Assembly (NCBI GenBank): GCA_963832655.1
Contig: CAWHUW010000005.1
Span: 257,156 to 321,155, forward strand
DNA: 64,000 nt
Direction: 5' to 3'
DNA from: an uncultured Thermoleophilia bacterium
GTDB taxonomy: Bacteria > Actinomycetota > Thermoleophilia > UBA2241
The first letter of the stretch is position 1; every line of letters starts with the position of its first letter. The position numbers were made by a program, and so were the translations under genes. Positions 1 through 63,564 of the stretch are shown here, piece after piece. Under the pieces are notes generated by a model. It did not search any database, was not told where the DNA came from, and saw only the letters and a program-made list of their open reading frames with translations.

Positions 1-2823
<2,823 letters not shown>

Positions 2824-2934
2824 CCCGGCGTCAGGCCGGCGGCGCCGGGTGCGCTGTCGAGCCGGCGGCCTTCGCCGAGGCGGTCGGCGCAACGCCGGCG
2901 GTGCCGCCACCGGAGCGCTGCCGCCCTCCTCCGC

Positions 2935-3888
2935 CACCCTCACCCCATCCGCGCTCACCGCGCGCAGCGACTCGACCTCGATGAAGATGCGGTTCACCTC
3001 GGGGTGATCGGCCGTGATGCGCTCCTCGATGCGGTGGATCGCGGCGTGGATCTCCTCGGCGCCCGTCCCCGGCGCGAACTCGACCTCGAGGTTGAGCAGG
3101 ACCTCCTCGGGGCCGAGGTGCATGGTGAGCACGGCGCCGACCCCGGTGACGACCGGGTCGTCACCGGCGAAGCGGCGCACGTCGTCGACAAGGTGCGGGT
3201 CGGCGCTCTCGCCGACGAGCAGGCCCTTGCTCTCCCAGGCGAGCCAGACGGCGACGACGCAGAGGATGCTGCCGATGACGATCGAGGCCGCGCCGTCGAT
3301 GTAGGGGTTCTCGAGCTCGTGGGCGAGGAAGATGCCGACGAAGGCGACGACCAGGCCGGCCAGCGCCGCCGAGTCCTCGAAGAGCACCGTGAAGAGGCTC
3401 GGGTCCTTGCCATGGTGGATGGCGCTGAGCGCGCGCCGGTCGCCCTTCATCGTCCTGAACGCCCGGTAGGCGACCGTGAACGAGATGCTCTCGAAGATCA
3501 TCGCCAGACCAAGGACGATGTAGTTGATGGTCGGGTTCGTCAGCTCGCTGGGGTGCTGGATGTGCAGGATGCCCTCGTAGATGGACATGCCGCCGCCGAT
3601 GCCGAAGATGCTGATCGCGACGATCAGGCTCCAGAAGTAGAGCTCCTTGCCGTAGCCGAACGGGTGCGTGGCGCTGGGCGGCCGCGAGCTGCGCTTGATG
3701 CCGAGGAAGAGCAGGGCGCCGTTGCCGGTGTCGACGAGGGAGTGGATGCCCTCGGAGAGCATGGCCGAGCTGCCGGTGATGGTGCCGGCGACGAACTTGA
3801 TGACGGCGATCGCGGCGTTGCCGATGATCGCCGCGATGACGGCCTTCTTCGACTCCTGATGTGCCATGGCGCAAGCGTACCGTGCCAT
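2935..3888 (-). CDS. Cation diffusion facilitator (CDF) family divalent-metal efflux transporter. The 3' end is uncertain because there is no in-frame stop before the homopolymer block.
   Basis: N-terminal ~315 aa of ORF 1180..3888(-) shows the CDF TM and cytoplasmic domain pattern (SEGIHSLVDTGNG, HPFGYGKELYFWS, HLGPEEVLLNLEVEF). Confidence 0.7.
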
Positions 3889-9546: not shown

Positions 9547-9570
9547 CGGATGAGATGTGAAGGGGGAGCT

Positions 9571-10110
9571 GTGACGGACGACCTGACGAAGTGGTGCGAG
9601 CGAGCGGTCGAGCTGGGCGCTGACAAGGCGACGGTCATCGGCACCGACCAGGTGGTCGCCGCCGAGTGGGTGCGCCTCAAGTGCCTCTACGGCTGCGACG
9701 AGCCCGGCGTGTACAAGACGTGCCCGCCGAACGGGGCGCCGAGCGTCGAGCAGACCAAGCGCGTGCTGGGCGAGTTCAAGCGCGCCGTGCTGCTCGGCGT
9801 CGGACCGATCTTCGGAGAAGACAAGTCCGACGCCGAGTCGCGGCGCCTCAACGACGCCGCCCTCGCGCTCGAGGGCGAGCTCTTCCTCGCCGGCTTCCAC
9901 AAGGCGTGGACGATGGGCGCCGGACCCTGCGACATCTGCAGCGCCTGCGCGCAGGGCAAGGACTGCCCGACCCCGGAGAAGGCGCGACCCTCGATGGAGG
10001 GCTGCGGCGTCGACGTCTTCACCACGGTGCGCAACGCCGACTGGCAGATCGACGTCGTGCAGACGCCCGAGTCGGAGTACCGCTTCTTCGCTCTCGTGCT
10101 CGTCGACTGA
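9571..10110 (+). CDS. DUF2284-type predicted metal-binding protein (Cys-rich).
   Basis: Conserved Cys pattern LKCLYGCDEPGVYKTCPP ... CDICSACAQGKDCP. GAAGGGGGAG SD before GTG 9571. Confidence 0.55.
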   Translation: MTDDLTKWCERAVELGADKATVIGTDQVVAAEWVRLKCLYGCDEPGVYKTCPPNGAPSVEQTKRVLGEFKRAVLLGVGPIFGEDKSDAESRRLNDAALALEGELFLAGFHKAWTMGAGPCDICSACAQGKDCPTPEKARPSMEGCGVDVFTTVRNADWQIDVVQTPESEYRFFALVLVD

Positions 10111-10191
10111 CGCCGGCGCTCAGGGCGTCGGCGTCAGTCCGCTCGCGCCGCCGTGACCGTCAGCAGGAGGCCCCGGCAGCCGGACGCGCGA

Positions 10192-10668
10192 TCACGCCGC
10201 CTTGGCGACCGGCCGGGCGACCGACGCCTCGGCCAGCAGCTTCAGATTCTCCAGGCTGTCCTCGAAGTCGCGGCGCACGCGCTTCTCGACGACGAGGCGG
10301 TCGAACAGCTTGCCGAACACCCCGCCGCCCAACGTGTACTCGAAGTCCGTGGTCGCCTCCACGTCTCCCTCACGGGGCTCGTGATGACACGCCAGCGAGC
10401 CCGAGATACCGCCCGCGTACTCCCACCGCCAGTCAGTGCTTCCGTCGGGGTTGTGCCTCTCCTCGACCGTACGCATGATGAGGCGCTGCCGCCTGCCCAT
10501 CATCTCCAGCGTGAACTCCGCCTTGGTCCCCGGGCCGCCGTCGCCGAACGCGCGGTGTGGCCCGCTCATGCCGACCCAGTACTCGGTGGCGCGATGGGGA
10601 TCGCGCACGATGTCGTTCAAGGTATCGGGTGACGCCTTGATGTACGTGGTCTGCTTCAGATGTGCCAT
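10192..10668 (-). CDS. SRPBCC superfamily protein (polyketide cyclase / AHSA1-like fold).
   Basis: ORF 10192..10731(-); start at MAHLKQ with a GGAGGGAGGG SD. ~158 aa of beta/alpha SRPBCC-like sequence. Confidence 0.5.
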   Translation of the reverse strand: MAHLKQTTYIKASPDTLNDIVRDPHRATEYWVGMSGPHRAFGDGGPGTKAEFTLEMMGRRQRLIMRTVEERHNPDGSTDWRWEYAGGISGSLACHHEPREGDVEATTDFEYTLGGGVFGKLFDRLVVEKRVRRDFEDSLENLKLLAEASVARPVAKAA

Positions 10669-10963
10669 GGACACCCTCCCTCCTGGGCGCTCACGCGCGT
10701 CCGTCACGACGCCCGGGCCTCCTGCAGTCACAGACTACTCCCGGTCAACGGCAGATCACCGTTGAGGAGAGGAGGAGACGGGCCGCATCTTGCCGCCGTG
10801 GCCGCCCAAAGCCAGAGTCCTCTCTCCTGCGACGGGCGCCACGCACATCGCCGACCTTCAACACCGAGCCTGTGAGTCCGCCGCGTTCGTGGGCAAACGT
10901 CAACTTAGTGATGCATTGATGTTATGATGATTCGCGACCATACTGGCGCCCATGGAGTACCTC

Positions 10964-11323
10964 ATGCGGACCACGCTGACGATCGATTCGCGAGTCCTGG
11001 CCGAGTTCAAGACGCGCGCGGCCGAGACGCACCGCACGCTGAGCGGACTCATCGAGGATGCGCTGCGTGAGCACCTGAGCCGTGGCCGCGATCAGCTCGC
11101 TACCAAGCCGCTCGACTTCCCCATCGTCGGTGGCGACGGCGTCGCGCCGGGCGTGGACCTCACGAGCAACACGGCCCTGGCCGACCGCGTCGACAGGGCC
11201 GACGGCACGTACGAACGGTTCACGGCGCCCGCCGGTGACCCCGCCGACGGATCTTCAGGCGGCGCGAACGAAGCGGCGCCCGCCGCCGGGGCCCGCGACA
11301 CACCGCGCAAGCGCGCGCGCTGA
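10964..11323 (+). CDS. vapB: Ribbon-helix-helix antitoxin (VapB/CopG-like).
   Basis: MRTTLTIDSRVLAEFKTRAAETHRTLSGLIEDALREHL is a classic RHH antitoxin N-terminus. It is preceded by an AT-richer promoter-like region (ttgatg...tatgat). Confidence 0.6.
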   Translation: MRTTLTIDSRVLAEFKTRAAETHRTLSGLIEDALREHLSRGRDQLATKPLDFPIVGGDGVAPGVDLTSNTALADRVDRADGTYERFTAPAGDPADGSSGGANEAAPAAGARDTPRKRAR

Positions 11324-11332
11324 ACGTCCGCC

Positions 11333-11490
11333 GTGCTGCTCCCCGACCTGAACGTCCTCATCGCCGCGCATCGCTCCGACAGCCCGCTGCACGAGCCATG
11401 TCGCGACTGGCTGCGCGGCGTCTACGCGGGGAAGGAGCCGTTCGGGCTGTGCGCTCCCGTGCTCATCGGACTGGTAAGAATCCTCAGCGG
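11333..11490 (+). pseudogene. vapC: Truncated PIN-domain toxin (VapC), N-terminal ~50 aa only.
   Basis: The GTG at 11333 follows the vapB stop. LLPDLNVLIAAHRSDSPLHEPCRDWL...EPFGLCAPVLIGLVRI matches a PIN N-terminus and is then lost into unrelated sequence. Confidence 0.45.
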
Positions 11491-11632
11491 GTACCGCCTT
11501 GTTGGCCGCCTCGTACAACACCAGCCACCCGACGGCGACGATGACCGGGATCATGCCGACGATCAGGATCGCGAAGAAGACGCGAGCGCGCAGCGAGCGC
11601 AAGGAGTCGGGGATGTGTGGCTTCGACGTCAT
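11490..11632 (-). pseudogene. N-terminal fragment (first TM helix) of the sensor histidine kinase cognate to the upstream response regulator.
   Basis: The ATG at 11632 overlaps the response-regulator stop (ATGA). MTSKPHIPDSLRSLRARVFFAILIVGMIPVIVAVGWLVLY is a typical histidine-kinase N-terminal TM segment, after which the kinase is absent. Confidence 0.4.
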
Positions 11633-12290
11633 GACCGCACCGCCTTGTAGCCGATGCCGCGGACCGTCTCGATCGTCAGGGCGCCGCCGAGCTTGGCGCG
11701 CAGTTGCGCGACGTGCTGGTCCACCGTGCGCGTGCCGCCGGGGAACTCGAGGTCCCAGACAAGCTCGAGCAGGCGCTCGCGCGAGAGGACGACACCGGGG
11801 TGCCGGACGAAGCAGGCGAGCAGGTCGAACTCCTTGAGCGTGAGATCGACCGGCGCGCCTGCGATGGAAGCTTCGCGCGCTGTGAGATCGACCGCGACGT
11901 CGCCGAGGAAGAGCACCTCGCGGCGTGCTGCGCCTTCGGTGCGGCGCAACACCGCCTTGACCCGCGCGACGAGCTCGCGAGGGCTGAACGGCTTGGGCAC
12001 GTAGTCGTCGGCGCCGAGCTCGAGGCCGACGACCCGATCGGCCTCCTCGTCGCGCGCGGTCAGCATGATGACCGGGACGGCGAATCCGGCCGCACGCGTG
12101 CGCAGGACCTCGAAGCCGTCATGCCGGGCAGCCGACGTCGAGGAGGACCATGCGGACCGGGTGACGGGTCAGCTCGGCGAGCGCCTCTTCGCCGCTGCGC
12201 GCCCAGACGACGCACGTGACCGTCGCGCTCGAGGTAGGTGCGCACCAGCGCGCCGATGTTGTGCTCGTCCTCGACCAGCAGAACCGTGAC
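11629..12290 (-). CDS. OmpR-family two-component response regulator. It carries single-base indels in the receiver domain.
   Basis: VTVLLVEDEHNIGALVRTYLERDGH ... (three indels) ... IMLTARDEEADRVVGLELGADDYVPKPFSPRELVARVKAVLRR + winged helix ETVRGIGYKAV. Confidence 0.75.
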
Positions 12291-38006: not shown

Positions 38007-38775
38007 GTGGCTGGCCTGCTTGCCGGCAAGAACATCCTCGTGATGGGCGCCGCCAACCGGCGGTCGATCGCCTGGTCCGCGGCCGAGGCGATCCACCGCG
38101 AGGGCGGCGCCGTCGCGCTCACCTACCAGGCCGAGCGACTCAAGGGCCGCGTCGAGCGCCTCAGCCGCCGAGCTCGGCGGCGCGCCGCTGATCGAGTGCG
38201 ACGTGGCCAGCGACGCGGCAGTGCGCGCCGCCGTCGACGACCTCGCCGAACGCATGCCCGTGCTCCACGGCATCGTGCACAGCATCGCCTGGGCGCCCGC
38301 CGAGGACCTGCAAGGCGAGTTCGTCGACACGTCGCGCGACGGGTTCGCCGCCGCCAACGACATCAGCTCGTACTCGCTCATCGCCGTGGCGCGGGAGGCC
38401 CGACGACTCATGACCCAGGGCGGCGCGATCGTGACCATGACGTACGCCGGCTCGTGGCGCGTGATCCCGAACTACAACGTCATGGGCCCGGCCAAGGCGA
38501 GCCTCGAGAGCTCGGTGCGCTATCTGGCCGCGGATCTCGGGCCGGCCGGCGTCCGCGTGAACGCGGTCTCGGCCGGCCCCATCGCGACCGTCGCCGCGCG
38601 CACGATCAAGGACTTCAGCGGCATGCTCGACCTGCTCGAGAGCCACACGCCGCTGCGGCGTAACGTCACTGCCGGTGAGGTCGCCGACGCCACGGTGTTC
38701 CTGCTCAGCGACCTGTCGCGCGCGATCACCGGCGAGGTCGTGCACGTCGACGCCGGCGCGCACGCGGTGACGTGA
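38007..38775 (+). CDS. fabI: Enoyl-[acyl-carrier-protein] reductase (NADH). There is a frameshift near ~38165.
   Basis: VAGLLAGKNILVMGAANRRSIAW (GAAxxxSIA motif), YAGSWRVIPNYNVMGPAKASLE (Tyr-x6-Lys region), GGGAGGG SD. Confidence 0.8.
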
Positions 38776-39279: not shown

Positions 39280-40807
39280 ATGGCAGAAGAACCGAAGAGA
39301 CTCAAGTACTTCATGAACGGCGAGTGGCATACGTCGAAGACCGACAAGTACATGCCGGTCGACGACTCGAGCACCGGAGAGGTGATCGCCGAGGCGCCGT
39401 GCTGCACCAAGGACGAGGTGGAAGAGGCCATCCAGAACGCGCAGTGGGCGTTCGAGACCTGGGGGCGTCTGCCGATCCAGAAGCGCACCCAGGTCATCTT
39501 CAACTGGAAGCGCCTGCTCGAGCAGCACGCCGAGGAGATCACCTACCTCTGCTCGCGCGAGCTCGGCAAGAACCTCGACGAGGCCCGCGGCGAGGTCATC
39601 AAGATCATCGAGGGCTGCGAGACCGCCGTCTCCGCCCCAATGGTCCTGAAGGGCGAGTCGCTCATGAACGTGTCCACCGGGCACGACACGGTGAGCTACC
39701 GCGAGCCGCTCGGCGTGTTCGCCGGCATCGCGCCCTTCAACTTCCCGGCGATGATCCCGTTCGGCTGGATGCTCCCGCTGTGCATCGTCAGCGGTAACAC
39801 GTTCGTCCTCAAGCTGGCCAGCATGGTGCCGACCACCGGCATGCGCCTGACCGAGCTTCTGCACGAGGCCGGGCTGCCGGCCGGCGTCGTCAACGTGCGT
39901 CACCTGCAGCCGCAACGAGGCAGAGCTGCTCATGACGCACCCGCTGGTCCGCGGCGTGAGCTTCGTCGGCTCGACCAAGGTCGGCCTGCACGTCTACTCG
40001 ATGGCCGCCGCCCACGGCAAGCGCGTCCAGGCCCAGACCGAGGCCAAGAACCACGGTCTCGTACTCGCCGACGCCTCGCTCGAGCGCGCCGCCGCCGGCA
40101 TCATCAACTCGACCTTCGGCTGCGCCGGCATGCGCTGTATGGCGCTGCCGGTCATCGTGGTCGAGAACAAGGTCGCCGACGAGTTCATCGGCTACATGGT
40201 CAAGTACGCCAAGGAGCGCGTCGTCGGCTGCTCCTACGACCCCAAGACCGAGCTCGGCCCGGTCGTGTCGGCCGACCATGCAGGCCTTCGTCAAGGGCTG
40301 GATCGACAAGGGCGTCGAAGAGGGCGCCGACCTGCTCCTCGACGGCCGCGACCTCGTCGTCCCGGGCTTCGAGGGCGGGCACTTCGTCGGCCCGACGATC
40401 TTCGACAACGTGACCGAGGACATGGAAGTCGGCCGCGAAGAGATCTTCGGCCCGGTGTGCTGCATCAAGCGCGTCGAGGACTTCGAAGAGGGCATCACCA
40501 TCATGAACGACAGCCGCTTCGCCAACGGCTCGTGCATCTTCACCGAGAGCGGCTACTACTCGCGCGAGTTCGCCCGCCGCACGCACGCCGGCATGGTCGG
40601 CATCAACGTCGGCATCCCGGTGCCGGTGAGCTTCTTCCCGTTCGCCGGTCACAAGCAGTCGTTCTTCGGCGAGAGCCACGTCTTCGGGCTCGACGGCTTC
40701 CGCTTCTACACCGAGTCCAAGTGCGTCACCTCGCGCTGGTTCACCGAGGCGGAGAAGAAGGAGACCAAGGTCGGCACCTGGGAAGGTACCGTCAACAAGC
40801 AGTGGTG
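39280..40807 (+). CDS. mmsA: CoA-acylating methylmalonate-semialdehyde dehydrogenase. There are 2 frameshifts.
   Basis: KYFMNGEWHTSKTDKYMPVDDSSTGEVIAEAP..., catalytic FGCAGMRCMA, and C-terminus ...FFGESHVFGLDGFRFYTESKCVTSRW. The pieces are in ORFs 39280.., 39932.. and 40278..40808. Confidence 0.8.
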
Positions 40808-40836
40808 AGAGCCGCGTAGCGCTCCCGGCACGTCTG

Positions 40837-47782: not shown

Positions 47783-47935
47783 CCTGCGCAGTATGCGTGC
47801 TGCTCGCCGACGTCACAAGGCGCGCGTCCCGCCAGGCCGGGCGGCGGGCGATCGGGCGGGCCGCGCCGACACGACGCGGCGCCGACGTGAGATGCGCCGC
47901 CTCATGTCACGGCACCCGCCGGTATACTCCCGCCG

Positions 47936-48643
47936 ATGAGCCCCGGACCCGCACAGACCCTCCTTGACCTGCGCGAGGCTGAGCTGTTCGCGCGCCTCGA
48001 CGGGGACGAGCTGGCCAGAGTGGCGGCGCTCGCCCGCCCGTTGGAGCTGCCGGGCGAGCGCCTGCTCTTCCTGCAGGGCGACGAGGCGGCGGCCTTCTAC
48101 ATCCTCGCCGCCGGCCAGGTCAAAGTCTTCAAGATGCTGCGTGACGGACGCTCGGCGACGATCCGTCACGTCCGGCCTGGTCAGTCCTTCGCCGAGGCGG
48201 CGCTCTTTCGCGAGACGTACCCGTCGAGCGCCGAGACCCTGGCCGCCAGCCGGCTCTACAGGTTCGACACCAACGAGTTCCGCAAGTTGCTGCTCGCCGA
48301 GCCGCAGCTCGCCGTCAGCCTGCTGGCCGCGATGGCCGAGCTGCTCGGCCTGCTCAATCGCCGCGTCGAGGAGTTGCTGCTCCCCGTGCCGGCCCGCCTG
48401 GCGCGCTACCTGCTGGCGCTCGCCGAGGCCCAGCTCGCACCTCCCTCGCAGGACGGCGGGCCGAGGGTCGTGCATCTGCCGACGACCAAGCGCGAGCTCG
48501 CCGCGCGCCTCGGCACCGTCCCCGAGACGCTCAGCCGTACCTTCGACCGCTTCAAGCGCGCCAAGATCATCCGCATGAGCAGCGGCCACGAGCTCATCGA
48601 GATCCTCGACTTCGGCGCCCTGCGTCGCCTGGCACAGGAGTAG
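47936..48643 (+). CDS. Crp/Fnr-family transcriptional regulator (no FNR Cys cluster, no obvious CooA heme ligands).
   Basis: cNMP-binding-like domain (FLQGDEAAAFYILAAGQVKVFK) and C-terminal HTH (TKRELAARLGTVPETLSRTFDRFK). Confidence 0.8.
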   Translation: MSPGPAQTLLDLREAELFARLDGDELARVAALARPLELPGERLLFLQGDEAAAFYILAAGQVKVFKMLRDGRSATIRHVRPGQSFAEAALFRETYPSSAETLAASRLYRFDTNEFRKLLLAEPQLAVSLLAAMAELLGLLNRRVEELLLPVPARLARYLLALAEAQLAPPSQDGGPRVVHLPTTKRELAARLGTVPETLSRTFDRFKRAKIIRMSSGHELIEILDFGALRRLAQE

Positions 48644-48772
48644 GGCGACCGCAAGGCACGCACCGGGCGGCCGACGCGGCCGTGCCTTCGCCAGGCGACG
48701 CGGCTCGCTCATGCTCCTCGCCGCGCAGCCGAGGAGTACCATGATGCGCACAACGGACCCCGGGGGTGGACG

Positions 48773-49741
48773 ATGGCACGCGAACCTCTCACTCGCGCTG
48801 ACTTCCTCAAGATCCTGGCCGCCGGCGCCGGCGGCGTCGTGTTCTTCCGCGGGGCCGAGGACGCGCTCGCCGGCATCGCCGGCGCACACGACGACATCGA
48901 CCAGGCTGCTCTCAGCGGCGACCTCGCGGCGGCCCTCGCTTACCCCCACATGACCGTCGTCAAGGGTACCCCGATCGGCACGAACGTGAGGACGGCCATC
49001 GCGAAGCTCGGCGGCATGCGCCGCTTCGTCGCCGCCGGCGCCGACGTGATCATCAAGCCCAACATCTGCACCGCGCGCACGCCGGGGTACGCGGCGACCA
49101 CCAACCCCACCGTCGTCGCGACGCTCGTGCGCCTGGCGCTCGGCGCGGGAGCGAGCCGGGTCCGGGTCATGGACAACCCGATCTCGGTGGCCCCGCTCGG
49201 CGCCTACACCACCAGCGGGATCAAGAGCGCCGTGGAGAAGGCCGGGGGGGCCATGCAGATCATGAGCGGCACCCGCTATCGGGACTACTACGTCGGCGGC
49301 CTCCTCGGCTACCACCCGCTCTACAGCGACATGCTCGCCTGCGACGTCCTCATCAACGTGCCGGTCGCCAAAGTGCACGGGGCCACCGGCCTCACGCTCG
49401 CCGGCAAGAACATGATGGGCGCCACGAACGACCGCGGGGCGATGCACACCAAGGGACTCAGCAGGAGCATCGCCGAGATCAACCGCAAGCTGAAGCCGGA
49501 CCTCACGGTCATCGACGCCATCCGGATCCTCGTCGCGCACGGCCCGACCGGCGGCAACCTGTCCGACGTGCGCCGCAAGGACACCGTCATCGCCTCCAAG
49601 GACTGGGTGGCGGCCGACGCGTACGCGACGCGGCTGTTCGGCAGGACGCCCCGCTACGTCCCCTACATCGCGGCCGCGCACCGCATGGGCCTCGGGGAGA
49701 ACGACCTGTCGAAACTGACCATCCGGAAGTACTGGGTCTGA
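48773..49741 (+). CDS. DUF362 family protein with a Tat-like N-terminus.
   Basis: LTRADFLKILAAGAGG followed by VIIKPNICTAR...AATTNPTVVATLVRLALGAG, typical of DUF362. Confidence 0.55.
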   Translation: MAREPLTRADFLKILAAGAGGVVFFRGAEDALAGIAGAHDDIDQAALSGDLAAALAYPHMTVVKGTPIGTNVRTAIAKLGGMRRFVAAGADVIIKPNICTARTPGYAATTNPTVVATLVRLALGAGASRVRVMDNPISVAPLGAYTTSGIKSAVEKAGGAMQIMSGTRYRDYYVGGLLGYHPLYSDMLACDVLINVPVAKVHGATGLTLAGKNMMGATNDRGAMHTKGLSRSIAEINRKLKPDLTVIDAIRILVAHGPTGGNLSDVRRKDTVIASKDWVAADAYATRLFGRTPRYVPYIAAAHRMGLGENDLSKLTIRKYWV

Positions 49742-49748
49742 GCGAGCC

Positions 49749-51383
49749 GTGAGGGACGAGGCCGAGGCGGTGCGCCGGTCGACGGGCGGCTGGAAGGCCG
49801 CCCGCTGGGCCCGGCGCGCCACCCAGATCGCCGCGTTCGCCGTCTTCGTGTACCTGCTGTTCGCGGGGCTGCAGCGCCTCGAGCCGCTGCCCTACGCGAA
49901 CATCTTCTTCCGCTTCGACCCGCTGGCGGCGTTCGCGACCATGCTGGCCGCCCGCGTCTGGATGCCGGACTTCGCTCTCGCGCTCGTCACGCTGGCGCTG
50001 GCCGTCGTCGTGGGCCGCGTCTGGTGTGGCTGGATCTGCCCGCTGGGCAGCCTGCTCGGGTGGCTCCGGTTCCGCTCCGCGCCGCGGCGGGCCGGGCGTG
50101 TGCCCCCGGCCCTGCGGCGCGTCAAGTACGTGCTCCTCGGCGCCGTCGTCGTGCTCGCCGCCCTCACCGGCCTCACCCTTCTCGTACTCGACCCTGTCGC
50201 CCTGCTCACGCGCACCGCGACGACGTCGCTCATCCCCGGCGCCGTCTTCATCGTCGACAGTCTCGAGGAGGCAGGGATGCGCTGGGAGCCGACGGTCGGC
50301 GCCGTGACGTGGGTCGAGGACCACTTCCGCGGCAACGTCCTCCCGACGATCCAGCCGCGGTACGGGCAGGCGGTCCTGCTCTTCCTGGTCCTGCTCGCGG
50401 TGATCCTTCTCAACGCCTTCGCGCACCGCTTCTGGTGCCGGTACCTGTGCCCGCTCGGAGCGCTGCTCGGCCTGGTCGCCAAGGTGCAGGTGCTGCGCCC
50501 CGTCGTCGGCGACGCCTGCGACCGCTGCGGCGCCTGCGCTCGCGCCTGCGGCGTCGACGCCATCGAACTGGCGTCGGACGGCGGCGCCGTGGCGCCGGCT
50601 GCCGACTCGCCGAACGGCGGCACCGCCCGCGTCGTCACCTCGGAGTGCACGATGTGTCTCGACTGCCTCGTCGCCTGTCCCCGACCCGGCGCCATGAGCT
50701 TCGGCGTGGCGCGGCGGCCCGGGCCGTGGGCGCCGTACGATCCGGGGCGCCGCGAGGTCGTCATCGCGGCGGCGGCCGGCGTGGGAGCCGCGGTGCTCTT
50801 CGGCACCGGCGTCGCGCGCGCCGTGCCGCGCCCGGGCCTGATCCGCCCGCCGGGCGCCCAGGACGAGGCGCGCTTCCTCTCCCGCTGTCTGCGCTGCAGC
50901 GAGTGCATGAAGGTCTGCCCCACGTCCGGCCTGCAGCCGACGCTCGCCGAGGCCGGCCTCGAGGGGCTCTGGACCCCCGTCCTCAAGTCGCGCCTCGGCT
51001 ACTGCGACTACGCCTGCACCGCCTGCGGACACGTCTGCCCGTCCGGCGCCATCCCGAAGCTGGGCCTCGAGGAGAAGCGCGTGCAGGTCCTCGGCGTCGC
51101 CGTCATCGACCGCGACCGCTGCCTGCCGTGGGCGTCGGACACACCCTGCATCGTCTGCCAGGAGATGTGCCCCGTCCCCGACAAGGCCATCGAGCTCGTC
51201 GGGCAGCACCTGGTCACCCGCCCCGACGGCTCGCAGGACTACCTCTCGCGGCCGAAGGTCATCGCCGACCGCTGCATAGGCTGCGGTATCTGCGAGTACA
51301 AGTGCCCGCTCGAGGGGACTTCGGCGATCGTGGTCCTGCCGTCGAACCCCGACCTCGCCGGCGGCACGGTGCCTCTCGGCTGA
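49749..51383 (+). CDS. NapH/MauN/CcoG-like membrane polyferredoxin (4 TM helices and four [4Fe-4S]-type Cys motifs).
   Basis: Two CGWICPLG / CRYLCPLG motifs plus CDRCGACARAC, CTMCLDCLVACP, CLRCSECMKVCP, CTACGHVCP and CIGCGICEYKCP. Confidence 0.7.
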   Translation: MRDEAEAVRRSTGGWKAARWARRATQIAAFAVFVYLLFAGLQRLEPLPYANIFFRFDPLAAFATMLAARVWMPDFALALVTLALAVVVGRVWCGWICPLGSLLGWLRFRSAPRRAGRVPPALRRVKYVLLGAVVVLAALTGLTLLVLDPVALLTRTATTSLIPGAVFIVDSLEEAGMRWEPTVGAVTWVEDHFRGNVLPTIQPRYGQAVLLFLVLLAVILLNAFAHRFWCRYLCPLGALLGLVAKVQVLRPVVGDACDRCGACARACGVDAIELASDGGAVAPAADSPNGGTARVVTSECTMCLDCLVACPRPGAMSFGVARRPGPWAPYDPGRREVVIAAAAGVGAAVLFGTGVARAVPRPGLIRPPGAQDEARFLSRCLRCSECMKVCPTSGLQPTLAEAGLEGLWTPVLKSRLGYCDYACTACGHVCPSGAIPKLGLEEKRVQVLGVAVIDRDRCLPWASDTPCIVCQEMCPVPDKAIELVGQHLVTRPDGSQDYLSRPKVIADRCIGCGICEYKCPLEGTSAIVVLPSNPDLAGGTVPLG

Positions 51384-51444
51384 GACGGCGGGAGGAGGCG
51401 GCGAGCGCGGCGCACCGCCTGAGCGGCGGCCGAAGGCGCTGCGA

Positions 51445-52338
51445 TCAGCGGTACCCGGCCGCCCGGAACAGCTCCGGCAGCGAGACGGGCTGTAAATTGC
51501 GCGCCCGGAGCCCCCGCAGGATCGCGGGGAGCGCCGACGCGGTCCGTCGCTTGATGTGGAGCAGAACGATGGATCCGGGTCGCACGTTGCGGAGCACACG
51601 CCGCGTGATGACTGCGGCGCGCGGCGAACGCCAGTCCTCGGGATCGACGTCCCAGAGAACGAGGCGTGTGAAGCCGACCGCGCCGGCGACGCGGCGCATC
51701 CGTCGGTCGTACCTGCCGTAGGGCGGTCGAAGGTAGGGCGCCGGCGTCGCGCGCGCGGCCGTCCACCACGGCCGGCTGCTTCGCGCCAGCTCACGGCGCA
51801 TCTGTGCGGTCGTCAAGCCCGTCATCACCGCGTGCGACCAGCCGTGGGAACCCACGGCGTGCCCCTCCGCGAGCGTACGACGCGCCAGCTCCGGGTTGGC
51901 GCTCACGTAGGGCCCGAGGACGAAGAACGTCGCGCGGACCCCCCATGCCTTGAGCGTCCGCAGGATCCGCCTCCACGGGCCGGCGGCGCCGTCGTCGAAC
52001 GTCAGCGCGACGCGCCTTCCTGCGCCGTCGATGCGACGCCATGCCTGGGCGATCGTGGCGCCGGATCCGTCGCCCGCAGCCGCCCGAGCCACCTCGGCGT
52101 TGGCGCGGCGCGACCCAGGCCCGGCGCTTGCGGCGACGGCCGACGATGACGTTGGGCCGTCGGACGGCGCTGGTGGCGACGGTGTGAAGGGCGAGACGAC
52201 AGCCGCGGATGGGCTCGCGACAGCCTCCCGACGTGCGTCCGCGCCGACGGGCGCGCCGGCCATGCTCGTCGTCAACAGGAAACCGCCAAGGGCGAGCGCG
52301 GCCAGGACGACGGCGATGAGGATGGCGTTTCGCTGCAC
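51445..52338 (-). CDS. Polysaccharide deacetylase (NodB homology domain), secreted.
   Basis: Signal peptide; VALTFDDG (TFDDG motif); HGWSHAVM. Confidence 0.7.
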   Translation of the reverse strand: MQRNAILIAVVLAALALGGFLLTTSMAGAPVGADARREAVASPSAAVVSPFTPSPPAPSDGPTSSSAVAASAGPGSRRANAEVARAAAGDGSGATIAQAWRRIDGAGRRVALTFDDGAAGPWRRILRTLKAWGVRATFFVLGPYVSANPELARRTLAEGHAVGSHGWSHAVMTGLTTAQMRRELARSSRPWWTAARATPAPYLRPPYGRYDRRMRRVAGAVGFTRLVLWDVDPEDWRSPRAAVITRRVLRNVRPGSIVLLHIKRRTASALPAILRGLRARNLQPVSLPELFRAAGYR

Positions 52339-52655
52339 GGGTGCCTCCCGGACGCCGGGTCGTCTGCCCGGCAGGCGCGATCGACGCGCGACGTCGGGAC
52401 TGTGTTCGCACGCGACGTCTCACGACCTTCCCGTGGGCCGACGTCCGGGGGCAGCGCGCGACCTCCGCGTCCTCGCGGTTGACCCAGGTCAATGCACCGA
52501 CGGCCCGGTGCCGGTACAGTAACCACCACGGCGGCAGTGTTTACTGCGCCGTGACCCACCAAACCGACACACCCGGCCGCCGGCGCTCGCGCGACGATCC
52601 CCCGTCGTGACAACGGCTTCGGCGGCGGCAGATCCGGAAAGAGGTCACATAGCCA

Positions 52656-53036
52656 TGGCAGTCCGCAACATCGTGAAGATCGACGAGGAGCTCTGCAACG
52701 GGTGCGGTCTCTGCGTCACCCCGTGCGCCGAAGGCGCGATCGAGATGGTCGACGGCAAGGCCAAGGTCGTCAAGGACGAGCTCTGCGACGGCGCCGGCTT
52801 CTGCCTCGCAGTGTGCCCGACCGGCGCCCTCACCGTCGAGGAGCGCGAGGCGCCGGCGTTCGACGAGGAAGCCGCCGCCGAGCGCGTCGCCGAGAAGCTC
52901 GCCGCCGCCGTCGCCATCCAGCAGAACTGCTTCAACTGCGGCCGCAGCGAGATGGACGCCGTCCTCTTCCCCTGCCGCAACAAGGGCGCAAGCACCTGGG
53001 TGTGCGTCAAGTGCCTGCCCGCCCTCATCCACGGTT
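52656..53036 (+). CDS. Ferredoxin-like protein with one canonical and one atypical Cys motif plus a Cys-rich C-terminal tail.
   Basis: [11 protein letters not shown] (CxxCxxCxxxC), [12 protein letters not shown] (C-x5-C-x3-CP), then NCFNCG...FPC...WVCVKC. Confidence 0.65.
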
Positions 53037-53086
53037 GACCGGCGCCCTCGGCGCCTGAACGTTCCCAACTCTCCCAGGAGGAGTCC

Positions 53087-54952
53087 ATGGCCGACAGTTA
53101 CCACGCATCAGTCCACACGATGCTCGAAGAAGCCCGGGAGCAGGGCGAGGACACGGCGTTCGACCGCATGGACGCCATGGGCCGCCGCTGCACCTTCTGC
53201 GAGCAGGGCATCCGCTGCTCGCTGTGTTCGCAGGGTCCCTGCCGCATCACCGAGAAGGCGCCGCGTGGCGTCTGCGGGATCGACGCCGACGGCATGGCGA
53301 TGCGCAACTTCCTGCTGCAGAACACGATGGGCACCGCCACCTACACCTACCACGCGACCGAGGTGATGAAGACCCTCCGCGAGGCGAAGCCCGGCGGCAC
53401 CTACGAGATCAAGGACTGGAGCAAGCTCGAGACGCTCGCCTCCGTGGTCGGCGAGCCCGCCGAGCCCAGGGACACGTTGCCCAAGCGGGTCGCCGACGCG
53501 ATCCTCGCCGAGTTCAACCGCGACCACCAGAGCCCCTCGCCCTTCGTCGAGAAGATGGCGCCGGCTCCGCGCGTGGCCAAGTGGAAGGAGCTCGGCATCA
53601 TGCCGGGCGGCATCTTCCACGAGAGCATGTTCGCGACCTCGAGCTGTCTCACCAACGTCGACGGCAACTACGTGAGTCTCGCCCTCAAGGCCCTCCGCCT
53701 CGGGATCGCCACCGCCTACGGCGCGCAGATCCCGCTCGAGCTCGCCCAGGACGCGCTCTGGGGCACGCCGACGCCGCACCCCATCAAGGTCGACCTCGGC
53801 ATCATCGACCCCGCCTACGTCAACATCGTCGTCAACGGCCACGAGCCCATGGTCGGCGCCGCCCTGATCGCCGCGGCCCACGAGCCGGCGGCTCAGGAGA
53901 AGGCGAAGGCCGCCGGCGCCAAGGGCCTGCGCATCGTCGGCTCGATCGAGACCGGCCAGGAGCTCGTCCAGCGCTTCGAGGTCGACGACGTCTTCGTCGG
54001 ACTCACCGGCAACTGGCTCACCGAGGAGCTCGCCGTCGCGACCGGCGGCCTCGACGTGTTCGCCGCCGACATGAACTGTACCGTGCCGACCCTCGGCGCC
54101 ACCTGCGCCGCCCACGGCACGCTCCTCGTGCCCGTCAGCGACCTCGTCGGCATCGACGGCGCCGAGACGCCGATCGTCTTCGACCCGGCCAAGGCCGGCG
54201 ATCAGGCGAAGCAGCTCATCGAGCTGGCCGTAGCCAACTTCCCCAAGAGGAAGGCCCTCGGCCAGACCACCCCCGCGCTGCGCACGGGCGACGCCGTCGC
54301 CGGTTTCAGCACCGAGAGCATCCTCGGCGCCCTCGGCGGCAGCCTCGACCCGCTGCTCGACGTCATCAAGAACGGCACCCTCAAGGGCGTCTGCGGCCTC
54401 GTCAGCTGTACCACGCTGCGCGACTCGGACCAGGACAGCCACACGGTCGCGATCGCCAAGGAGCTCATCAAGAACGACGTCCTCGTACTGGCCATGGGTT
54501 GCGGCAACGCCGCCCTGCAGGTCGCCGGTCTCGAGGCCGCCGAGGCCAAGGAGATGGCCGGCCCCGGCCTCAAGGCGGTCTGCGAACTGCTCGGCATCCC
54601 GCCGGTCCTGAGCTTCGGCACCTGCACCGATACGGGCCGCATCTTGCTGCTCGTCGGCGCCATCGCCGACGCCCTCGGCGTCGACGTCCCGGCGTTGCCC
54701 GTCGTGGCTACGGCACCCGAGTACATGGAGCAGAAGGCGACCATCGACGCCATGGCGGCGCTGGCCTTCGGCCTGTACGTGCATGTGAACCCGGTGCCGT
54801 TCGTCACCGGCGCGCCGAACCTCGTCAAGCTGGTGACCCAGGACCTCCCGGGCGTCACCGGCGGCAAGCTCGACGTCGAGACCGACGCCAAGAAGGCCGT
54901 GGCGAACATGATGGCGTGGATAGCGGACAAGCGCCAGGCACTCGGGATTTGA
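53087..54952 (+). CDS. CooS-family (anaerobic Ni-CO dehydrogenase catalytic subunit) homolog. It has a CxxC-type D-cluster motif, and the CooS Cys-Cys pair containing Cys295 aligns to Ile-Glu.
   Basis: 621 aa, collinear from my memory of the CODH-II sequence: CTFCEQGIRCSLCSQGPCRI, GVCGIDADG (B-cluster Cys), NIVVNGHEP (His261 equivalent), DMNCTVPT (Cys333), GVCGLVSCTT (Cys446), AMGCGNAAL (Cys476), FGTCTDTG (Cys526), EQKA (Lys563). GICCTGNE in CODH-II aligns to GSIETGQE. Confidence 0.75.
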   Translation: MADSYHASVHTMLEEAREQGEDTAFDRMDAMGRRCTFCEQGIRCSLCSQGPCRITEKAPRGVCGIDADGMAMRNFLLQNTMGTATYTYHATEVMKTLREAKPGGTYEIKDWSKLETLASVVGEPAEPRDTLPKRVADAILAEFNRDHQSPSPFVEKMAPAPRVAKWKELGIMPGGIFHESMFATSSCLTNVDGNYVSLALKALRLGIATAYGAQIPLELAQDALWGTPTPHPIKVDLGIIDPAYVNIVVNGHEPMVGAALIAAAHEPAAQEKAKAAGAKGLRIVGSIETGQELVQRFEVDDVFVGLTGNWLTEELAVATGGLDVFAADMNCTVPTLGATCAAHGTLLVPVSDLVGIDGAETPIVFDPAKAGDQAKQLIELAVANFPKRKALGQTTPALRTGDAVAGFSTESILGALGGSLDPLLDVIKNGTLKGVCGLVSCTTLRDSDQDSHTVAIAKELIKNDVLVLAMGCGNAALQVAGLEAAEAKEMAGPGLKAVCELLGIPPVLSFGTCTDTGRILLLVGAIADALGVDVPALPVVATAPEYMEQKATIDAMAALAFGLYVHVNPVPFVTGAPNLVKLVTQDLPGVTGGKLDVETDAKKAVANMMAWIADKRQALGI

Positions 54953-55088
54953 CGGACGCCTGGCGCTCAGAGCTGTCGAGCGTTGCGGCGAAGCGTCACT
55001 GCTCCTGCGGAGAGAAGCGAGCCGCGCTGGGCATCTGATCGCGGAGCATGCGACGCCGCTGGCTGCGGCGTCGTCACACAACAGAACG

Positions 55089-55118
55089 CGACGGGGCGGG
55101 CCTCACGACCCGCCCCGT
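55089..55118. terminator. Bidirectional GC-rich hairpin between the cooS-like gene and the convergent small membrane gene.
   Basis: gacggggcggg-cctcacga-cccgccccgtc. Confidence 0.45.
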
Positions 55119-55129
55119 CGCCCGTTCAC

Positions 55130-61748: not shown

Positions 61749-63564
61749 ATGAAGCGGTCCGTCCTGCTCGCGAGCCTGGTTCTCGCGAATCTGTCTGCTC
61801 TGGGCGCCCGGGGTCGCCCTCGCGCTCACGCAGCAGCAGTGCCTCACCTGCCACACCGAGATCACGCCGGGCATCGTGACCCAATACCAGTCGGGCGCCA
61901 TGGGCGACGACGTCGCCTGCCTCGACTGCCACGGCGACGACCACAGCGTCATCACCGCCACCGAGGGCAAGGTCCCGGCCGGGAAGTGCGCCGGTTGCCA
62001 CCCCGACCAGTACGCGGAGTTCACCGTCAAGGACGCGACCGGGTCGTACATCAACAAGCACGCGCAGGGCTGGACGCGAATGCTCGCCGGCGCCCGCTAC
62101 AAGGTCATGCCCGAGGCCGAGCGCTACGAGATGTGCGAGCGCTGCCACAACATCGGCTACACCTACGTGGACGGCTCGGTCGGCAAGTGCGACTCGTGCC
62201 ACACGCGGCACGTCTTCTCTGCCGAAGAGGCGAGAGAGCCGGCCGCCTGTGGCACCTGCCACATGGGCCCCGACCACGAGCAGATCGACATGTGGGAGAA
62301 GAGCAAGCACGGCGTCGTCTACATGACCGAGAAGGAGCGCCCCGGCGGCGATCCCGGACGAGCGCCGACCTGCGTCACCTGCCACCAGCCTGAGATGGTG
62401 AACGGTGCCGGCCAGCCGCTGACGCACAACGTGTCGACCAACCTGACGTACGGCACCGTCGCCCAGGGCGCCCGCCTCGTCGGGACGCCACTGTCGGTGC
62501 CGATGCGCACGATGACCGAGTCCGAGTTCTCCTCCCGGCGGGCGAACATGCTCGGAGTCTGTGGCGACTGCCACTCCTCGACGTGGGCGCGCAAGAACCT
62601 CGAGCTCGCCGACCAGATCAAGATGGACGTCGACGAGCTGCTCTGGGACCCGGTCATGCGCATCCGCGGCCTCTGGTACGACGGCCTGCTCGACCCGATG
62701 CCCGAGAACCGGCCGCCGAACCCGGTGTACGCCGCCGCCGGACCCAACTTCGTCAACGGCGGCTACGTGCTCGTCCTCGGCGGCCAGCAGCTCTACAGCG
62801 ACACGTCGGCGATCGAGCAGTGGCTCTTCTACACCTACAAGTACGACCACGTGAACACGTTCAAGGGCGCCTACCACATCAACCCCGACTACAGCCACTG
62901 GTTCGGCTGGTCGGAGGTCAACCAGGACATCGGGATGATCAGGGGCGAGGAGGCCTCGCTGCGCCGCGGTGAGGACCCGGGTTTCGCGGCCAGCCCGACG
63001 CGGCCCGTGGTCGGACAGCCGACGACGTTCGACGCGAGTGCCCTCGCGGCGTGGGGCGACGCGAGCGCCAACGTGTATGCGTGGACCTTCGGCGACAAGG
63101 CGTCTGCTGCTGCCGCGGCCGAGACGAGCGTCGCCCATACCTACGCCGCCCCCGGCCGCTACACGGTGCAGCTCACCTGCTCCGACGGCGACCTCGTCAA
63201 CAACGTGCTTCAGCCGCTGAGCTGCTCCGGGAAGCGCACGAGCAGCCTGCGAACACAAGCCAAGTACGGCGCCACGTTCGGGCTCTACGAGATCGCTCGC
63301 GTGAAGAAGGGCAAGCAGGTCACCATCAAGGGGTCGCTCAAGACCGACGACTCCAACGCCGCCCTCGTCCAGCTCTGGGAGAAGGTCGGCTCGGGATCGT
63401 GGAAGATGGTCAGCTCCAAGACGGTCGCCACGACGGCCGGCGTGTCCCTGACCGTGTCCTTCAAGCGCACGCTGAACTCCAAGACGTCCTTCAAGCTGAC
63501 CTACGTCGGCGACGCCGACACGTGGGACGTGACCACCAAGACGCGGACCATCTCACCGCTCTGA
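61749..63564 (+). CDS. Octaheme c-type cytochrome (HAO / octaheme nitrite reductase-like heme arrangement) with a C-terminal PKD-like domain and beta-rich tail. There is a frameshift near ~61800.
   Basis: Signal peptide MKRSVLLASLVLANLSAL. Eight CxxCH motifs: CLTCH, CLDCH, CAGCH, CERCH, CDSCH, CGTCH, CVTCH, CGDCH. PKD-like VYAWTFGDKASAAAAAETSVAHTYAAPGRYTVQLTCSDGD. Confidence 0.7.

Follow-up and report, generated by a model that had tools for sequence, protein, structure and literature searches.

A CooS-V-type gene, its ferredoxin and a putative HcpR-type operator next to a DUF362-polyferredoxin pair in Thermoleophilia: one system or two?

CooS genes of clade D, CooS-V included, have been termed lone genes without contextual clues since 2005 and 2012, and in a genomic-context survey of the clade from 2026 a share of 64% was solitary and no clear pattern was recognised. 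In the present study a stretch of 64,000 nucleotides of DNA from an uncultured Thermoleophilia bacterium (contig CAWHUW010000005.1, positions 257,156 to 321,155; hereafter the window) was analysed, in which a CooS-like gene of this clade follows genes for a regulator of the Crp/Fnr family (crp), a DUF362 protein, a polyferredoxin (PFD) and a small ferredoxin (Fdx, gene fdx). A first-pass annotation had seen in this assemblage an undescribed arrangement and suggested a membrane-anchored electron-transfer system, which feeds an unusual enzyme. The question raised by the locus is whether these genes form one such system, and which of them belong to the enzyme. Our answer, which we hold to be probable, is that there are two separable units and one regulator gene: crp-fdx-cooS-V, an analogue of hcpR-frdX-hcp, and DUF362-PFD.

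The analysis covered the window and the 80 best loci encoding relatives of the CooS-like enzyme. Neighbouring genes were detected with tblastn (E ≤1e-5, query coverage thresholds of 40-50%), and counts of genes within 10 kb refer to those 25 CooS-centred loci in which 8 kb or more of sequence precede the gene. The G+C content of the window is about 70%, and its closest relatives are metagenome-assembled genomes (MAGs) of Thermoleophilia (Actinomycetota). The genes in question are arranged as follows:

47936-48643, + strand: Crp/Fnr-family regulator, 235 aa, with cNMP_binding and HTH_Crp_2 domains
48773-49741, + strand: DUF362 protein, 322 aa (Pfam DUF362, E = 2.7e-44)
49749-51383, + strand: polyferredoxin of NapH/NapG type, 544 aa
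51445-52338, - strand: polysaccharide deacetylase with an N-terminal membrane anchor (Pfam Polysacc_deac_1, E = 3.4e-31)
52655-53038, + strand: ferredoxin, 127 aa, with Fer4 family matches
53087-54952, + strand: CooS-like enzyme of CooS-V type, 621 aa, clade D

All four genes that had been placed upstream of the CooS-like gene on the same strand are real, and the position of the small ferredoxin gene directly 5' of it was confirmed, but the run is broken by the deacetylase gene on the - strand. The latter is an unrelated insertion, which separates PFD from fdx; L034, the closest relative, and other loci do not have it there. The five + strand genes between 47936 and 54952 have a G+C content at third codon positions of 0.90-0.95, while the surroundings consist, according to domain annotation, of cell-envelope genes such as glycosyltransferases, an O-antigen ligase and an L,D-transpeptidase. 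None of the genes annotated from 37291 to 63564 encodes CooC, CooF, CooT or CooJ or belongs to nap, nir or hcp.

The CooS-like protein matched Pfam PF03063 with E = 2.1e-138 and passed the NCBIfam CooS model TIGR01702 with 738 bits against a cut-off of 478; hydroxylamine reductase models gave it 36 bits against cut-offs of about 360. Among solved structures its best match was CooS-V of C. hydrogenoformans (ChCooS-V, 7b7q; E = 2e-204, residues 4-621), the next-best structure of a carbon monoxide dehydrogenase (CODH) reaching E = 3.5e-116. At the place of the first C-cluster cysteine, Cys295 of ChCODH-II, stands a glutamate, with GSIETGQE aligned to GSIESGQE of 7b7q, while the other hybrid-cluster ligands are kept (His252 and Cys331, 441, 472 and 513 aligned) and the CX2C motif of the [2Fe-2S] D-cluster is conserved. 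The replacement of Cys295 by glutamate was described as the defining feature of structural group D-1 (Inoue et al., 2019; Jeoung et al., 2022). Judged by these sequence features, the gene is an orthologue of C. hydrogenoformans CooS-V in group D-1 of clade D. ChCooS-V was found to hold a morphing [4Fe-3S-nO] hybrid cluster, to lack CO/CO2 activity and to accept hydroxylamine as a slow substrate (Jeoung et al., 2022). By analogy, the identity of the ligands suggests an Fe/S/O hybrid cluster without CO/CO2 interconversion in the enzyme of the window.

The ATG start of fdx agrees with all homologues. Its product carries the motifs CxxCxxCxxxC and C-x5-C-x3-CP, the second of which is one cysteine short of a cluster motif, followed by a C-terminal CxxC...CxxC module, and like CooS-V it has no signal peptide. 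Wherever a Thermoleophilia locus includes sequence 5' of cooS, fdx is the gene immediately in front of it; the same holds for L051, a MAG of an unrelated bacterium, and in the Bacillota locus L072 fdx comes directly after cooS. Presumably, Fdx is the electron donor of CooS-V.

The regulatory elements of the region were located as follows:

47923-47928, + strand: TATACT, a -10-like box 7 nt before the ATG of crp, read from the sequence
48653-48688, + strand: GC-rich palindrome AAGGCACG...CGTGCCTT, an inverted repeat just past the crp stop codon
48694-48742, + strand: DUF362 promoter region, with box GGCGACGCGGCTCGCTCA at 48694-48711 and the -10-like GAGGAG-TACCAT at 48731-48742
52479-52492, + strand: putative HcpR-type operator TTGACCCAGGTCAA, a perfect palindrome in the intergenic region 52339-52654
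52515-52520, + strand: TACAGT, a -10 box read from the sequence
55088-55121, unstranded: GC-rich hairpin with a 15-bp stem, a terminator-like site between the convergent cooS and - strand genes

A search for Crp/Fnr-type palindromes, proposed in the first-pass annotation for the regions in front of crp and of fdx, had a different outcome in each: between 47783 and 47935 (5' of crp) there was no match with up to two mismatches, whereas the region 5' of fdx holds one perfect TTGACNNNNGTCAA at 52479-52492. This is the sole perfect match to TTGAC-N4-GTCAA in the 64-kb window, with 0.00 expected from 100 shuffles. A copy with no or one mismatch precedes fdx in 33 of 33 Thermoleophilia loci whose upstream sequence is long enough, and every related locus that offers at least 88 bp has one; the two Thermoleophilia loci without it provide just 64 and 14 bp. 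L051 has a copy as well. From the centre of the operator to the first base of TACAGT the distance is 29.5 bp, which puts the operator at about -41.5, as is typical of class II promoters activated by Crp/Fnr proteins. In nearly all loci (about 37) a hexamer of the type TAnnnT, mostly gTACCTt, follows 22-23 nt past the box. A generic sigma-70 promoter scan gave no hits, and the -10 boxes were derived from the comparison across loci instead.

Elsewhere in the neighbourhood the box is not a regular element. In front of crp and PFD isolated matches to TTGAC-N4-GTCAA with two mismatches were the most that was found, and in front of DUF362 there were one match with one mismatch and one with two (L018, L017), neither conserved in sister loci. 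In sequence the operator of the window equals the HcpR consensus published for hcp and frdX genes, wyTTGACnnnnGTCAArw / ATTTGACCNNGGTCAAAT, and a single HcpR site ccTTGACCTgGGTCAAtT was described before hcp (Rodionov and colleagues). By this sequence criterion it is an operator of HcpR type and not of CooA type.

Directly after the -10 box of fdx many loci carry tgTCACTGTCAC, in place of which the window (52517-52550) and L034 show the inverted repeat CAGTAAC...GTTTACTG; it may be a second, lineage-specific operator or an element of the 5' untranslated region (UTR). On the + strand, the fdx-cooS transcript probably ends at the hairpin at 55088-55121.

The regulator matched cNMP_binding with 1.1e-18 and HTH_Crp_2 with 3.6e-18 in Pfam. 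It contains no cysteine at all, and no cysteine is conserved across 25 orthologues, so that a sensor of the FNR type with an Fe-S cluster is excluded. Judged by an alignment to CooA, the heme ligands of the latter, Cys75 and His77, are presumably missing too. The recognition helix LGTVPETLSRT is invariant in the 25 orthologues, including that of L051, and a helix of the E-x-x-S-R type, as in FNR, reads TTGA-N6-TCA. His78 is at least 90% conserved among the same orthologues, and DNR of P. aeruginosa is one of the best PDB matches. Together with the HcpR-consensus operator 5' of fdx-cooS, these features bear out the earlier view of a regulator without FNR cysteines, which is predicted to be HcpR/Dnr-like and not FNR- or CooA-like. 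It could be assumed that this local regulator binds the operator and acts as an activator, not as a repressor, and that its signal is NO or a related species.

The TATACT box would give crp a leaderless transcript from a promoter of its own; the motif GGTATACT also stands 5' of the crp start in L034 and L022, and a palindrome of Crp type was not found upstream of crp. The GC-rich palindrome at 48653-48688 may serve as terminator or insulator between crp and DUF362.

The neighbourhood was found to be conserved in other genomes with a CooS-V orthologue, on which the first-pass annotation had made its proposal depend, and the two groups of genes are conserved to different extents. Within 10 kb, crp was detected in 19 of the 25 CooS-centred loci and PFD in 10; about ten loci have crp without DUF362-PFD, and about half of the Thermoleophilia loci with crp-fdx-cooS lack DUF362-PFD over that distance. 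Six loci (L002, L010, L015, L020, L026, L032) display the box with no crp within 10 kb. A compact order crp-fdx-cooS characterises a subclade of Thermoleophilia (L023, L027, L029-L031), and the same three genes with the box form an island amid sulfatase and carbohydrate-binding genes in L051, where CooS identity is 60%. In the Bacillota locus L072 (7041-9931) a regulator of the Rrf2 family, cooS-V and an fdx, the product of which is 72% identical to Fdx of the window, follow one another in this order, so that a different family of regulators would control the pair there. NsrR, of the Rrf2 family, is known to regulate hcp in bacteria without HcpR.

Archaeal CooS-V orthologues (Methanoperedens and others, 56-62% identity) are accompanied by neither crp nor DUF362 nor PFD. 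Partial ferredoxin matches in archaeal loci lie on the opposite strand (L057-L059) or 0.7-1.2 kb upstream on the same strand (L070, L073), and just one archaeal locus, L049, has a box, a solitary perfect match 410 bp 5' of cooS. Outside Thermoleophilia, DUF362-PFD was never seen within 10 kb of CooS-V orthologues. Two loci with peculiar fdx-cooS regions should be mentioned: in L081 (14272-14916) fdx and its box are followed by just a 66-aa open reading frame (ORF), cooS seemingly having been lost, and L020 bears two fdx-cooS copies with the box 8 kb apart (1573-3156 and 9569-11863), the match of the first cooS being partial.

The other unit could be retraced best from its polyferredoxin. PFD had been described as a protein of NapH/MauN type with four transmembrane (TM) helices, two CxxxCPLG motifs and five 4Fe-4S motifs; the NapH-type character and the two CX3CPLG motifs were recovered, but the helices number five and the Fe-S motifs six. 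Four helices (residues 24-42, 75-93, 128-146 and 208-226), with the two CX3CPLG motifs, are followed by a pair of arginines (RR334-335) and a weakly hydrophobic TM5 (337-355), and of the six Cys-rich Fe-S motifs two precede the arginines and four come after TM5. From this arrangement the two are predicted to be cytoplasmic and the four C-terminal ones external. Of the NCBIfam models, NapG matched with 5e-32 and 111 bits, where its cut-off is 269, and NapH with 1.2e-27 and 97 bits, where it is 213. The PFD family comprises 1038 representatives at 50% identity (E <1e-30), and in 30 diverse members the internal RR is nearly invariant. For a polytopic polyferredoxin family, insertion by Sec and Tat with the C-terminal domain outside was reported, and Tat-dependent export was demonstrated experimentally for the MLMS-1 protein (Tooke et al., 2017). 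PFD of the window has the layout of that family, with an even TM count, RR, a weak last TM and a C-terminal poly-Fe-S domain, and by analogy its last four clusters would be placed outside by the internal Tat signal.

With a profile of distant members, six further PFD genes (L085-L090) were retrieved from Nitrospirota, Desulfobacterota-like and other MAGs. In 6/6 a gene for a DUF362 protein of 300-304 aa, 38-41% identical to that of the window, lies directly upstream on the same strand, and the flanks of these six pairs contain no genes for Crp, ferredoxin, prismane or CooS. DUF362-PFD thus appears to be an autonomous and widely conserved gene pair, which looks like a conserved extracytoplasmic module. 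Fusions of PFD and DUF362 were sought among the PFD representatives of about 800 aa, but all ten tested carry a C-terminal DUF6599 instead; in L090, DUF6599, DUF362 and PFD are three separate genes. The genes napA, napB and napC are not found near PFD in the annotated region.

In Thermoleophilia the pair has a characteristic place. All five DUF362-centred look-ups showed one DUF362 gene or two, followed by PFD and crp at gaps of 8-30 bp, then variable genes and then fdx(-cooS); the genes in between, many of them on the other strand, encode OmdA, ThrE, CorA, a glycosyltransferase, OTCase or subunits of PFOR. The regulator is usually the last gene of DUF362-PFD-crp, whereas the window and its closest relatives, L034 and L022, show the rearranged order crp-DUF362-PFD; even in L034, which has 95% CooS identity, crp and DUF362 are 1.4 kb further apart than in the window. 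Locus L091 ends at the start of fdx and has five genes inserted between the units. In L092 (9980-12417) PFD was called with 617 aa and crp is represented by a 71-aa HTH fragment, fdx-cooS being intact, which suggests frameshifts or decay in the PFD/crp part of the cluster.

The DUF362 protein scored 152 bits against a gathering cut-off of 24. Sequence and profile searches against solved structures gave no meaningful match; with its AlphaFold model (pLDDT 88), nickel-pincer enzymes of LarA type were the sole fold matches in the PDB with E <0.001 (Foldseek probability 1.00, E about 1e-5 to 3e-6). This agrees with the placement of DUF362 (PF04015) in Pfam clan CL0471 together with the N-terminal domain of LarA (DUF2088). 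Invariant residues are K95, N97, D134, K200, H202, K212, H225 and D248, and no cysteine is conserved. The protein had been called Tat-like, and the DUF362 domain was verified, but the Tat-like signal, T-R-A-D-F-L-K, shows R-A where twin arginine is expected. All 34 Thermoleophilia homologues share T-R-A/S-E/D-F-L-K with R8 and F11 invariant and the second arginine lost, while the six distant orthologues keep RR at the aligned position (MHRREFIK, MERRDFIK, SRRDFM and MNRRDFIK are among their signals). Some paralogues have a lipobox (LAAC), namely the second DUF362 proteins of L081 and L083. From these signals DUF362 is predicted to be exported and to lie outside the membrane.

Upstream of DUF362 the blocks GGCGACgccg-tCGCTCa and GAGGAG-TACCAT recur in most of ten loci and in both gene orders, and the palindrome TTGAC-N4-GTCAA was not found within this promoter region. 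Two other explanations of the region were discarded. The conserved GAGGAG-TACC-ATG was considered as the start of a leader peptide, but frames and peptides are not conserved, and a -10 box is the preferred reading. Control of DUF362 by a riboswitch was rejected as well: cobalamin riboswitches on the - strand with 100-105 bits (L081 7675-7856, L083 6525-6708, L084 7666-7848) are intergenic and adjoin DUF362, and they lie on the strand opposite to it and serve divergent genes for cobalamin salvage and transport. An Rfam search of the window gave no match.

If the two units are read separately, they might work as follows. Under an appropriate signal the regulator would bind the palindrome TTGACC-N2-GGTCAA at about -41.5 and switch on fdx-cooS in the manner of a class II activator. 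Electrons of low potential would then go from Fdx to the [2Fe-2S] D-cluster at the surface of the CooS-V dimer, on to the B-cluster and finally to the hybrid Fe/S/O cluster, where an N-O or O-O compound may be reduced without interconversion of CO and CO2. The DUF362-PFD module, for its part, probably connects the DUF362 enzyme outside the cell with either the quinone pool or the two Fe-S clusters that PFD has in the cytoplasm. We infer both the path and direction of the electrons and the substrates of the two enzymes. In the window the regulator gene would have moved in front of DUF362-PFD, and with the regulator gene attached to DUF362-PFD the two units would have been kept close to each other in Thermoleophilia.

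Three other explanations of the locus have to be weighed against this reading. In the first-pass annotation all genes belonged to a single membrane-anchored chain, in which a quinol or an external donor would reduce PFD, with DUF362 as accessory or donor, PFD would reduce Fdx and Fdx in turn CooS-V, Crp co-regulating all of them. It could be argued in its favour that PFD lies upstream in 10/25 CooS-centred loci and 5/5 DUF362-centred look-ups, that in most loci crp begins 8-30 bp behind PFD and so probably shares a transcript with DUF362-PFD, that the two cytoplasmic Fe-S motifs of PFD could dock a soluble ferredoxin, and that an HcpR site was predicted before the polyferredoxin gene yccM in Desulfuromonas. 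However, the units occur independently, with DUF362-PFD alone in all six distant lineages and about half of the crp-fdx-cooS loci devoid of PFD within 10 kb; the operator stands 5' of fdx-cooS only and neither DUF362 nor PFD has one, the conserved promoters being separate; variable and unrelated genes (one in the window, five in L091), some on the opposite strand, intervene between the units; and an extracytoplasmic position is predicted for DUF362 and for four of the six clusters of PFD. The single chain feeding the enzyme thus found no support, and we consider it unlikely. Adjacency might instead reflect synteny without function, the box being served by a global protein of the Fnr/Crp family and the local crp regulating something else or DUF362-PFD. 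The six loci that keep the box without crp within 10 kb would fit such a view, and so would the facts that all conserved loci belong to one class and that inserted genes vary freely. It has to account, though, for the contiguity of crp-fdx-cooS in the subclade L023, L027, L029-L031 and again in the distant L051 amid unrelated genes, which synteny alone can hardly explain, for a recognition helix that is invariant and of the type reading TTGA-N6-TCA, and for the failure to find any alternative target site near crp; we hold this explanation to be improbable as well. A true CO-oxidising coo system, with the unusual ferredoxin in the place of CooF and a CO sensor of the Crp family in that of CooA, is very improbable indeed. 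The enzyme did pass TIGR01702 and is named a catalytic subunit of CODH in public sources, but its glutamate in the place of cysteine is the very replacement seen in ChCooS-V, an enzyme without CO/CO2 activity, and CooC, CooF, CooT and CooJ are missing from the genes annotated between 37291 and 63564. In addition, Fdx has 127 aa and two cluster motifs against the tetra-cluster CooF, the operator is of HcpR type, and the regulator has no cysteine and presumably none of the Cys/His heme ligands of CooA. That the locus is no canonical coo operon, as had been stated earlier, is therefore upheld.

The preferred reading of two units has points against it, too. Every locus is an uncultured MAG, and the loci are phylogenetically non-independent, some possibly from near-identical genomes (e.g., L018, L084). 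No NO reductase activity was detectable in ChCooS-V, and its clusters have potentials about 300 mV lower than in HCP (Jeoung et al., 2022), so the substrate may not be an N-oxide. The predicted HcpR site in Desulfuromonas precedes a polyferredoxin gene, yccM, the product of which is NapH-like, and consequently polyferredoxins can belong to HcpR regulons. Finally, in 5/5 DUF362-centred look-ups of Thermoleophilia DUF362-PFD is next to crp and 1-6.5 kb from fdx; such proximity exceeds random placement and could indicate a functional tie. A special form of this tie, in which the regulator joins both systems in Thermoleophilia and PFD acts as a transmembrane wire from the exported DUF362 enzyme through its two cytoplasmic clusters to Fdx and CooS-V, is in our opinion quite doubtful; if true, an electron path across the membrane would end in the cytoplasm with CooS-V. 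Far more probable than this wire is that DUF362 is an exported partner dedicated to the dual Sec/Tat polyferredoxins, with which it would form a widespread and so far undescribed extracytoplasmic oxidoreductase.

Beyond the locus, the window presented a few peculiarities. A run of 636 T is directly followed by a run of 173 G (1771-2579), which breaks the reading frames around it and is almost certainly an artefact of assembly or sequencing. Two ORFs match C-terminal parts alone, one of a short-chain dehydrogenase (38203-38775, model positions 53-236) and one of an aldehyde dehydrogenase (40278-40808, model positions 320-461); frameshifts or faulty assembly may account for them. The gene at 61876-63564, about 7 kb 3' of cooS, encodes a multihaem cytochrome with a PKD domain (Multi-haem_cyto, 4e-28), which may belong to a system for extracellular electron transfer.

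The DUF362-PFD pair was also compared with known systems. DUF362 and the LarA superfamily share about 11% identity and TM-scores of 0.33-0.46, and DUF362 is shorter, predicted to be exported and paired with an Fe-S membrane protein. PFD resembles Q1NSB0 of the delta proteobacterium MLMS-1 in having five TM helices with RR directly before TM5 (337-355 here, 338-359 in MLMS-1), an N-terminal half like NapH with CX3CP and a C-terminal half like NapG with four clusters; six clusters are predicted here and seven there. The content is the same as in the quinol dehydrogenase NapGH, namely the NapH membrane part and the periplasmic tetra-cluster part of NapG, but here both are fused in one polypeptide, which stays far below the model cut-offs and has DUF362 as partner. 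While no partner of the polytopic family was named before (Tooke et al., 2017), a DUF362 gene lies directly upstream of PFD in the window and in 6/6 distant relatives. For this pairing no published description was found, and in this respect the arrangement appears, as supposed, not to be a described one. The strict pairing offers a candidate catalytic partner for a family otherwise known just for its Sec/Tat biogenesis.

As regards the enzyme, full-length similarity, the motif GSIE(S/T)GQE, the hybrid-cluster ligands and the CX2C motif of the [2Fe-2S] cluster are common to ChCooS-V and the CooS-V of the window, but ChCooS-V and clade D were reported as lone, whereas here an fdx gene and the operator always accompany cooS. 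A whole bacterial class is hence seen with a fixed partner ferredoxin and a conserved operator, of putative HcpR type, at an activator position, and a second lineage with a regulator of the Rrf2 family, to which NsrR belongs, HcpR and NsrR being two of the regulators of hcp. This is the first consistent context of regulation and partner for the 'lone' CooS genes of clade D, and it renders the stress role proposed for CooS-V directly testable. The combination of regulator, ferredoxin and prismane-family enzyme as such is not undescribed, since it corresponds to hcpR-frdX-hcp of Desulfovibrio, Geobacter/Desulfuromonas and Clostridia (Rodionov et al., 2004/2005), where a regulator of the Crp/Fnr family likewise stands beside an operon of ferredoxin and prismane-family enzyme and the operator is identical (TTGACnnnnGTCAA, at the activator position). 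In C. difficile the gene order of frdX-hcp, ferredoxin then enzyme, is the same, and HcpR was reported in 2026 to activate frdX-hcp about 200-fold on exposure to NO. What appears to be new, from sequence comparison, is a variant of the HcpR-type regulon in which CooS-V replaces HCP: the two systems are alike in layout, operator and promoter geometry, but the enzyme here is a dimeric CooS-V on the CODH scaffold of clade D.

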